Shown here: positions 43,935-44,473 of the stretch, piece by piece
Layout of the letters: the number at the start of each line of letters is the position of its first letter
How positions within the stretch are numbered: position 1 is the stretch's first letter
The notes under the pieces: model-generated
The model's input: the letters and a program-made list of their open reading frames with translations, nothing else
Databases searched by the model: none
Told to the model about the DNA's origin: nothing
Position numbers and translations under genes: made by a program
Source: Octopus sinensis
Lineage: Eukaryota
DNA length: 64,000 nt
Assembly (NCBI RefSeq): GCF_006345805.1
Contig: NC_043012.1
Coordinates: forward strand, 37,944,001-38,008,000
Direction of reading: 5' to 3'

Positions 43935-43939
<5 letters not shown>

Positions 43940-44468
43940 CCATACTAATATGGCATTCTTATAAAAATAAGAATAAAGCTGTCCGCTTATTAGCTCCATG
44001 AGGCCATCGCCTTAAGTTAGCTATTTGATACACAAACTGTATCCATATAACCTTTGAACGCTGCCGTTGTTCTCTTTTAGAGAGGCTTAGTAATTTTAAT
44101 ATTTCTATTATTGAAAACAAGTGGATGTATTCCACCGAAGCTAGGTAAATAAAACCTTTGAACAGAGATTGTCGGAAGCGACACCTACTGGTCTGGCTAC
44201 GCTGCATTGAAAAGGGGCAATACCCCGAAACGCGTCTGTAGCTGCCGGCCAAGTAGTGTGGAGCGACTGACCTCCCTTGTTCAAAGGTTATATGGATACA
44301 GTTTGTGTATCAAATAGCTAACTTAAGGCGATGGCCTCATGGAGCTAATAAGCGGACAGCTTTATTCTTATTTTTATAAGAATGCCATATTAGTATGGCG
44401 ATAACTATTATTTTCCGGGAACGCTGCCGCTGTTCTCTTTTAGAGAGAGTTAGTAATTTTAATATTTC

Positions 44469-44473
<5 letters not shown>
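43935..44473 (+). mobile_element. Non-autonomous Penelope-like/retrozyme-like element in (TA)n
   Basis: Perfect 125-bp inverted arms (43935-44059 / 44279-44403); 55-bp direct repeat (44056 / 44419, period 363); hammerhead motif inside; no meaningful ORF. Confidence 0.8.
44201..44242 (+). ncRNA. Minimal type I hammerhead ribozyme motif, U3-A8 variant
   Basis: Stem I gctgca/tgtagc; core TTGAAAA; stem II gggg-caata-cccc; GAAA; stem III ac-gc-gt; GUC triplet at 44234-44236. Confidence 0.75.

Follow-up and report, generated by a model that had tools for sequence, protein, structure and literature searches.

Insertions of Penelope-like elements (PLEs) are described as 5′-truncated partial tandems, often with an inverted, 5′-truncated copy at the 5′ end, a tail of 30–40 bp at one end and a bias towards microsatellites; non-autonomous derivatives exist, and it has been put forward that retrozymes "may exploit" PLEs (PMC8557442). 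The inverted repeat is reported to be shorter than the direct one and to overlap it by a few bases, and self-priming has been proposed for its origin (PMC3846280). A PLE protein from an anole cleaves AT-rich DNA on both strands and extends each of them; it uses mainly uncut RNA, and the tail is delimited by two start sites within that RNA (PMC11167929). Hammerhead ribozymes are associated with these elements, including about 1,300 in Schistosoma with the U3-A8 core, and for PLE hammerheads a palindromic helix III, action as dimers and low activity in vitro are described (PMC4209133). Animal retrozymes are circle-forming tandem units of 150–450 nt, and it is proposed that PLE or LINE enzymes use the circles as templates (PMC7229834); a recent preprint relates them to PLE terminal repeats, describes solo monomers as common and one of nine dimers as cleaving in vitro, and leaves the mechanism open (10.64898/2026.07.22.740005). 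Whether PLE enzymes move animal retrozymes, and whether circles are the templates, are posed as open questions in these sources (PMC7229834, PMC8557442, 10.64898/2026.07.22.740005), in which the support for a tie between the two rests on co-occurrence and phylogeny.

The locus described here lies in a window (the whole 64,000-nt stretch that was analysed) of animal-type DNA. It is one copy of a many-copy, ORF-less repeat of 363 nt, likely young and probably inserted by PLE enzymes from what was likely a tandem, uncut RNA, and would be a likely non-autonomous PLE passenger of the animal non-LTR retrozyme kind.

Insert anatomy and surroundings

A (TA)n tract flanks the insert on each side, which blurs its outer ends by about 3 nt and hides any target-site duplication. 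The left tract is the target microsatellite. The features are, in order:

43670–43937, no strand: left (TA)n tract, period 2, 138 copies
43935–44059, minus strand: inverted, 5′-truncated partner copy (of unit 44279–44403), 125/125 identical
44056–44059, no strand: GAAC, 4-nt microhomology at the inversion junction, common to arm and direct part
44056–44418, plus strand: one complete turn (363 nt) of the unit, with 41.6% GC and 64% of it paired in the fold predicted for a circle
44056–44110, plus strand: first copy of the 55-nt tandem overlap, from the period-363 comparison
44149–44289, plus strand: long irregular stem with the hammerhead at its tip, from the predicted fold and family contigs
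44201–44242, plus strand: type I hammerhead motif with U3 (44207), A8 (44212) and a palindrome as stem III; cleavage is predicted after 44236
44364–44400, plus strand: two small hairpins just 5′ of the first fixed end, from the predicted fold and family contigs
44404–44473, plus strand: 70-nt tail between the family's two fixed 3′ ends (about 44403–44410, and 44473), including the second overlap copy (44419–44473)
44474–44502, no strand: right (TA)n tract, from the sequence

All the features listed in the earlier note are present in the sequence. The perfect inverted 5′ copy at 43935–44059 is the exact reverse complement of 44279–44403 (125 of 125 positions), the GAAC at 44056–44059 belongs to both parts of the insert, and 44056–44110 recurs at a period of 363 as 44419–44473, with 52 of 55 sites matching (blastn within the window, E = 4e-19) and differences at 44067/44430, 44085/44448 and 44086/44449. 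Positions 43935–43937 are common to the inverted arm and the (TA)n tract, leaving 122–125 bp of the arm as element, and the arm is without the 70-nt tail. The locus as a whole amounts to 1.15 turns of the unit with one hammerhead, and the 64-kb window holds no second copy of the unit.

The longest stop-free frame in 44056–44473 is about 50 codons. No reverse transcriptase (RT) or GIY-YIG ORF is present in the insert, and the locus is therefore not classed as an autonomous PLE. The unit gave no PLE-like coding match to three PLE proteins or, by tblastx, to 119 foreign loci bearing hammerheads of this type, and a short ATG frame at 44396, considered as a PLE N-terminus, is unsupported by the frame and PLE coding comparisons.

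Several other repeats lie in the window. A decayed, frameshifted and 5′-truncated PLE of another family is found 1.1 kb from the insert (45616–46955, plus strand, ending near 47110 in (AAT)n), from which it follows that PLEs occur in this genome; it is 32% identical to two proteins that each combine RT and GIY-YIG, and retains RT motif C, the thumb, a degenerate Cys linker and GIY-YIG, with a hammerhead-like remnant near 46960–47000 that does not fold as a hammerhead. This element was rejected as the partner of the unit, with which it shares no significant DNA (best E = 0.71). A single Naiad-type partner made up of the GIY-YIG at 46044 and the RT at 47495 was likewise rejected: the GIY-YIG goes with the upstream RT fragment, and the RT frame at 47495 belongs to a separate, truncated LINE-like remnant (47495–49070, plus strand). 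This remnant has an RT end (Pfam RVT_1) and is flanked by (ATG)n/(AAT)n; a Cys/His knuckle and a restriction-like endonuclease motif can be made out by eye after the RT. A (AAT)n array of 4.6 kb with about 1,545 copies occupies 50148–54749, and degenerate 13-bp units form a short array at 42543–42633. A SINE-like repeat, putatively an octopus SINE, is present in 11 copies that are 70–90% alike (e.g., 42770–42990), two of which flank the insert on either side. A stop-free frame of 1,758 codons at 29556–34832 (plus strand), of low complexity, rich in Ser, Thr and Gln and with no Pfam match, is likely a long host exon.

The hammerhead and its repeat family

Stem I of the hammerhead pairs 44201–44206 with 44237–44242 (6 bp), the core TTGAAAA occupies 44207–44213, and stem II pairs 44214–44217 with 44223–44226 (4 bp); these are followed by GAAA (44227–44230), the palindrome ACGCGT (44230–44235) and C17 at 44236. 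An Rfam search gave no match at the gathering score, its 19 matches at E ≤ 10 being AT-repeat noise with no hammerhead family among them, and the hammerhead call therefore rests on anatomy and on the literature, where the U3-A8 core is published as the known variant that the earlier note had taken it for (PMC4209133).

Folding of the monomer gives stems I and II, with pairing probabilities of 0.94–0.99 in four contexts (circular unit, linear unit, fragment and whole insert), but not stem III, for which the probability is about 0. When two strands are co-folded, the predicted minimum is a pair of hammerheads that share a stem III of 6 bp formed between the molecules, at −65.5 kcal/mol versus 2 × −29.7 (−59.4 kcal/mol for two monomers), in keeping with the proposed dimer-type hammerhead. 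The 363-nt unit is far more stably folded than its shuffles (z = −7.2; 0 of 100 shuffles as stable), and the hammerhead fragment alone has only z = −2.1 (5 of 200 shuffles as stable). The hammerhead is thus predicted to cut only when two units meet, and a copy with a single hammerhead is likely inactive, a dead-end monomer unless paired in trans. An alternative pairing of stem I (44196–44201) as a switch was rejected, with a probability of 0.01. Elsewhere in the fold, the inverted arm ends within the 3′ strand of the long stem at 44149–44289, and the two hairpins at 44364–44400 are a candidate start signal for the reverse transcriptase.

Hammerheads of the same type were sought in metagenome contigs, of which 33 of 64 parts are covered, and in viral contigs. 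The exact 30-nt hammerhead pattern had no match in either set and the degenerate pattern none in the viral contigs; the degenerate scan of the metagenome contigs returned 119 distinct loci, 79 of them with long flanks, and 12 of the 119 carry a PLE-like ORF by tblastn. Among 121 matches in these parts, 76 cores are C3-G8, 29 U3-G8, 10 U3-A8 and 6 C3-A8; the 42 that pass a stem filter comprise 39 C3-G8, 2 U3-G8 and 1 C3-A8, and many of the 79 that fail it are chance hits. Covariation of positions 3 and 8 is not shown across these foreign hammerheads, U3-A8 accounting for 0 of 42 after the filter.

Some of these contigs resemble the locus in particular ways. In contig L057, a core of the form TTGAAAA...ACGCGT lies 345 nt behind the stop of an ORF with RT and GIY-YIG, stem I is just 3 bp and (TA)n begins 92 nt after the cut site; the frame joins RT, a Zn-finger-like linker and GIY-YIG, and by its linker this element is Neptune-like as defined in PMC8557442. 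Two such cores stand in a perfect 95-nt head-to-head repeat in L030 (1–201), and L080 (99–480) has a period of 292 nt and the closest stem II (28/30 over the motif) with a canonical C3-G8 core. A hammerhead-bearing periodic unit with a period of about 890 nt is seen in L018 (16–1147), and related hammerheads, with U3-A8 beside U3-G8, occur in the AT-rich contigs L030, L050, L051, L048, L012, L047 and L086, which suggests that U3-A8 can arise via a U3-G8 wobble step.

The copy is far from unique. Its family is present in 20 of the 24 public sequencing runs listed, from 11 studies under six organism labels, 17 of the runs with at least half of its words, and small data sets of 6–37 Mb are among them. 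Run contigs were placed on 44056–44473 at 85% likeness in four runs, giving 4,337 contigs in X1, 158 in X7, 35 in X11 and 39 in X13. These contigs are short and break at branch points, and they give no RNA ends, strand or circles; no run with the family is recorded as RNA, and the treatment of X11 and X13 as RNA is a guess.

The earlier note had described the unit as circularly permuted and predicted start points permuted round a circle; the family's 3′ ends are instead fixed, the best-supported ones coinciding with the two ends of this copy (44403–44410 and 44473). Of the six loose ends listed for X1, two enter (TA)n, at 44111 (equivalent to 44474; 20 contigs) and at 44410 (7 contigs), and the remaining four are diverged versions of the unit; X11 and X13 each have one listed contig that enters (TA)n behind 44407. 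The loose-end figures represent 23 of 115 over the four runs, and among these 23 there is none between 44112 and 44250. Attachment of such fixed ends to a PLE ORF, the other part of an outcome that the earlier note held to count against its own reading, is not seen among the listed ends. The junction of the tail sequence with 44111 onward recurs in further copies (X1 record 1 runs from 44068 to 44248), and tail-like sequence precedes 44071/44434 in 16 and 18 contigs of diverged members. Full-turn back joints, and with them direct views of tandem dimers, are not listed among the run contigs, which are too short to span one. Three opposite-strand joints lie elsewhere, at 44071/44292, 44075/44368 and 44252/44339, so the inversion points vary; a clustering of these junctions in the tail segment is only hinted at (3/4, P = 0.025, or 3/5, P = 0.053, with joints at 85% likeness and of either orientation).

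None of the variants listed (40 of 62) touches 44207–44212, and U3-A8 looks like a family trait. The earlier note saw in the two changed core positions a covariation suggestive of selection for catalysis; the unchanged core among the displayed family variants agrees with this and the U3-G8 cores among foreign hammerheads do not, and the sequences thus lend such selection weak support. In the long stem, the pair 44159/44283, which is T-A in this copy, is mostly C-G in X1, X7 and X11, and in X13 C at 44159 makes up 30/66 of the depth. By eye, compensatory changes affect two pairs in the first of the hairpins at 44364–44400 in diverged members, 44365/44382 from T-A to G-C (X7, X11, X13) and 44368/44379 from T-A to C-G (X11, X13). 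Family variants at 44157 and 44364 break predicted pairs; these are 2 of the 13 variants that reach 5% of the depth in X1 (drawn from the 40 of 62 listed, with 44430 handled apart), where 4.3 would be expected (P = 0.09, obtained twice, not significant).

Loose ends at 44071/44434, 44354–44355, 44383 and 44429 mark at least one diverged subfamily, seen in all four runs, in which the hairpin sequences are altered and the pairing is kept. A dip in X1 depth at 44168–44209 is missing in the other three runs and was left out of account. In X13, guessed to be RNA, plus-strand A-to-G changes make up 27 of the 46 differences, compared with 5/25, 7/31 and 3/16 in the other runs; most of those displayed come from one contig of depth 4.4 on 44153–44410 and hit core positions 44213, 44229 and 44230. 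This cluster in one low-depth contig possibly reflects A-to-I hyper-editing of a plus-strand transcript within a duplex, which it resembles.

Template and route of insertion

The inverted arm, which the earlier note left unexplained, is by analogy with described insertions the standard PLE signature. The insert has an inverted, 5′-truncated copy adjoining its 5′ end, a tail at one end only that lies between two fixed 3′ ends, and a (TA)n target on both sides, which is also found behind the family's ends; the tail is 70 nt here, versus 30–40 nt in print. As no ORF belongs to the unit, it is likely a non-autonomous passenger. An autonomous partner with a matching terminus was not found in comparisons with the neighbouring decayed PLE and the 119 foreign loci, the latter sharing only 30-nt hammerhead matches with the unit.

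A route can be proposed from these ends. A tandem source locus would be transcribed on the plus strand, and a PLE protein acting in trans (RT with GIY-YIG endonuclease) would nick both strands of (TA)n, as inferred from PAc biochemistry. One nick would prime at the fixed start 44473 and be extended back over 418 nt, through an uncut hammerhead and past one full turn, creating the 55-nt overlap. The other would prime near 44403 and stall after 125 nt, at 44279, on entering the long stem, creating an arm without a tail; here and for the first product the ends are those observed in the insert, and the enzyme and route are presumed. Both products are joined at the 4-nt GAAC microhomology. Placed on a tandem of units, arm and direct part leave a gap of only 15 nt, which fits two primers on one RNA. 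The perfect identity of the arms fits copying of the same turn better, from a sister RNA or by fold-back on the new cDNA, the latter being a rival to second-nick priming as the origin of the arm.

The template can be addressed by comparing the two kinds of repeated sequence in the insert. The arms differ at 0 of 125 positions (upper 95% bound on divergence 2.4%) and the tandem overlaps at 3 of 55 (Fisher P = 0.027, or P = 0.092 if the overlap differences are counted as two events). Both arms carry the alleles 44283 A and 44364 A, which are in the minority in X1. With no differences and shared minority alleles, the arms derive from one event and have changed little since, and the earlier description of a young, retroposed copy of a hammerhead-bearing unit stands. 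Among the overlap differences, that at 44430 (C/T) is widespread as a polymorphism in the family, with 33 contigs and 28% of the depth in X1, and that at 44449 breaks a predicted pair and may be a later mutation. Because the overlaps differ where the arms do not, a single monomer circle is disfavoured as the sole template; the simplest reading is that the overlaps were copied from different template positions, on a tandem transcript or by a switch between RNAs. Of the earlier proposal of reverse transcription around a circular or multimeric RNA, the multimeric template fits and the single monomer circle does not. This lowers the claim of this copy to be the footprint of a circle and is no proof that there are no circles.

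A 363-nt circular RNA formed by hammerhead cleavage and ligation, and reverse-transcribed 1.15 times round by a PLE enzyme from fixed starts, is accordingly an unlikely account of this copy. The size, GC content and strong self-pairing of the unit match circle-forming animal retrozymes such as the 350–390 nt units of mussels, and circles are the templates in the published model (PMC7229834); the copy crosses the predicted cut site and overruns one turn, its arms are identical, and fixed starts are compatible with a circular template. A circle read twice should give identical overlaps, however, and one of the three differences sits at a common family polymorphism; the circle could be upheld only by invoking a template switch, or an older tail already in the target. 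Published activities also speak against it: uncut RNA was the main substrate of the one PLE studied in vitro (PMC11167929), PLE-type dimer hammerheads are reported to cut poorly in vitro (PMC4209133), and one of nine dimers from Xenopus was cut (10.64898/2026.07.22.740005).

It is improbable that the unit merely serves an autonomous PLE as its terminal repeat (pseudo-LTR), with the locus a partial tandem of that element's 5′-truncated copies and no separate non-autonomous family. PLE insertions are mostly 5′-truncated, with partial tandems usual (PMC8557442; 10.64898/2026.07.22.740005), in X7 the 3′ part has more summed depth than the hammerhead region (a weak sign, contig depth not being copy number), and an ORF junction could lie in loose ends beyond the 23 of 115 listed. 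In a PLE, however, the stretch before the hammerhead connects to the end of the ORF, as in L057, whereas here it connects to the tail, both in this locus and in other contigs; the lack of listed loose ends at 44112–44250 and of any coding match to the three PLE proteins and the 119 loci points the same way.

The 15-nt geometry of arm and direct part recalls the twin priming of LINE-1 elements. Spread of the unit without PLE enzymes, for example by LINE-driven twin priming or through the repair of DNA hairpins in unstable (TA)n, with the hammerhead as a relic, would accommodate the arm ending 15 nt upstream of the direct-part start in tandem coordinates and the LINE-type RT remnant at 47495–48745, but it is very improbable given the absence of poly(A) or a LINE-like 3′ end, the two fixed ends 70 nt apart with a one-sided tail, described as unique to PLEs (PMC11167929), and the PLE-like ORF that accompanies this type of hammerhead in 12 of 119 loci.

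Comparison with described elements

Insertion by PLE enzymes from a tandem, uncut RNA would place the locus in a class, the PLE-dependent, hammerhead-bearing, non-autonomous repeat, that is already named, and each of its parts is already in print; the locus taken alone is an ordinary insertion of a known element class. The family is likely a new one within a known kind of genome parasite, the retrozyme. No published description of it was found in the literature, that on octopus and other cephalopods included, with Repbase, Dfam and subscription journals outside the scope of the search, and published family lists could already include this element. A family with both a PLE footprint and a one-turn overrun lets the two open questions, on the enzymes and on the template, be tested from a genome assembly alone. 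A bolder and doubtful view is that the family is a live, self-cleaving circular-RNA element of its host lineage, with thousands of genomic copies that each record PLE copying; two fixed priming sites, one per nicked strand, would explain tail and arm, the phase of alleles in the overlaps would tell a circular template from a tandem one, and the host would destroy the hammerhead core by editing inverted copies from A to I. If true, this would be the first retrozyme family shown by its insertion footprints to ride on PLE machinery.

The Chlamydomonas element MRC1 (PMC8557442) is likewise an ORF-less PLE passenger with pseudo-LTRs and head-to-tail copies. It belongs to another PLE clade and another kingdom, and elements of the MRC1 type are described as sharing 3′ sequence with a known autonomous family, whereas none was found for this unit.

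The PLE hammerheads of PMC4209133 offer a close match to the motif. The U3-A8 core covariation is that of the Cercyon PLE hammerheads of Schistosoma mansoni, with about 1,300 hits in that species, the palindromic, dimer-dependent helix III is that of Penelope in Drosophila virilis, and motif pairs on opposite strands 100–700 bp apart are reported in the same source. In contrast to the hammerheads described there, the present one has a complete stem I of 6 bp that continues into a long stem, a stem II of 4 bp, and a place in an ORF-less periodic unit.

With the endonuclease-bearing PLEs (Penelope/Poseidon and Neptune; PMC3846280, PMC8557442, PMC11167929), the locus shares an inverted, 5′-truncated partner with a few-base overlap, a one-sided tail between two fixed starts, an AT-rich or microsatellite target, and a hammerhead of the kind found in their terminal repeat. 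It differs from them, as they are described, in that the unit has no RT or GIY-YIG ORF and a tail of 70 rather than 30–40 nt, and its ends are found 167 and 237 nt downstream of the predicted cut site.

Animal non-LTR retrozymes (PMC7229834; 10.64898/2026.07.22.740005) differ from the locus in its PLE dimer-type hammerhead, U3-A8 core and single hammerhead in this copy. The full PLE signature is present here, in a locus known from sequence, and the retrozyme descriptions, as far as these sources go, are without it; the "active" class of the preprint comprises tandems of at least two hammerhead units, as against 1.15 turns and one hammerhead at this locus. In other respects the resemblance is close: retrozymes are multicopy, strongly self-paired and ORF-less units of 150–450 nt that have a GC content below 50% and carry a single type I hammerhead each, they are proposed to be PLE passengers and their solo monomers are common, and the unit described here is a non-coding repeat of 363 nt with 41.6% GC, a type I hammerhead, no LTR and many copies.
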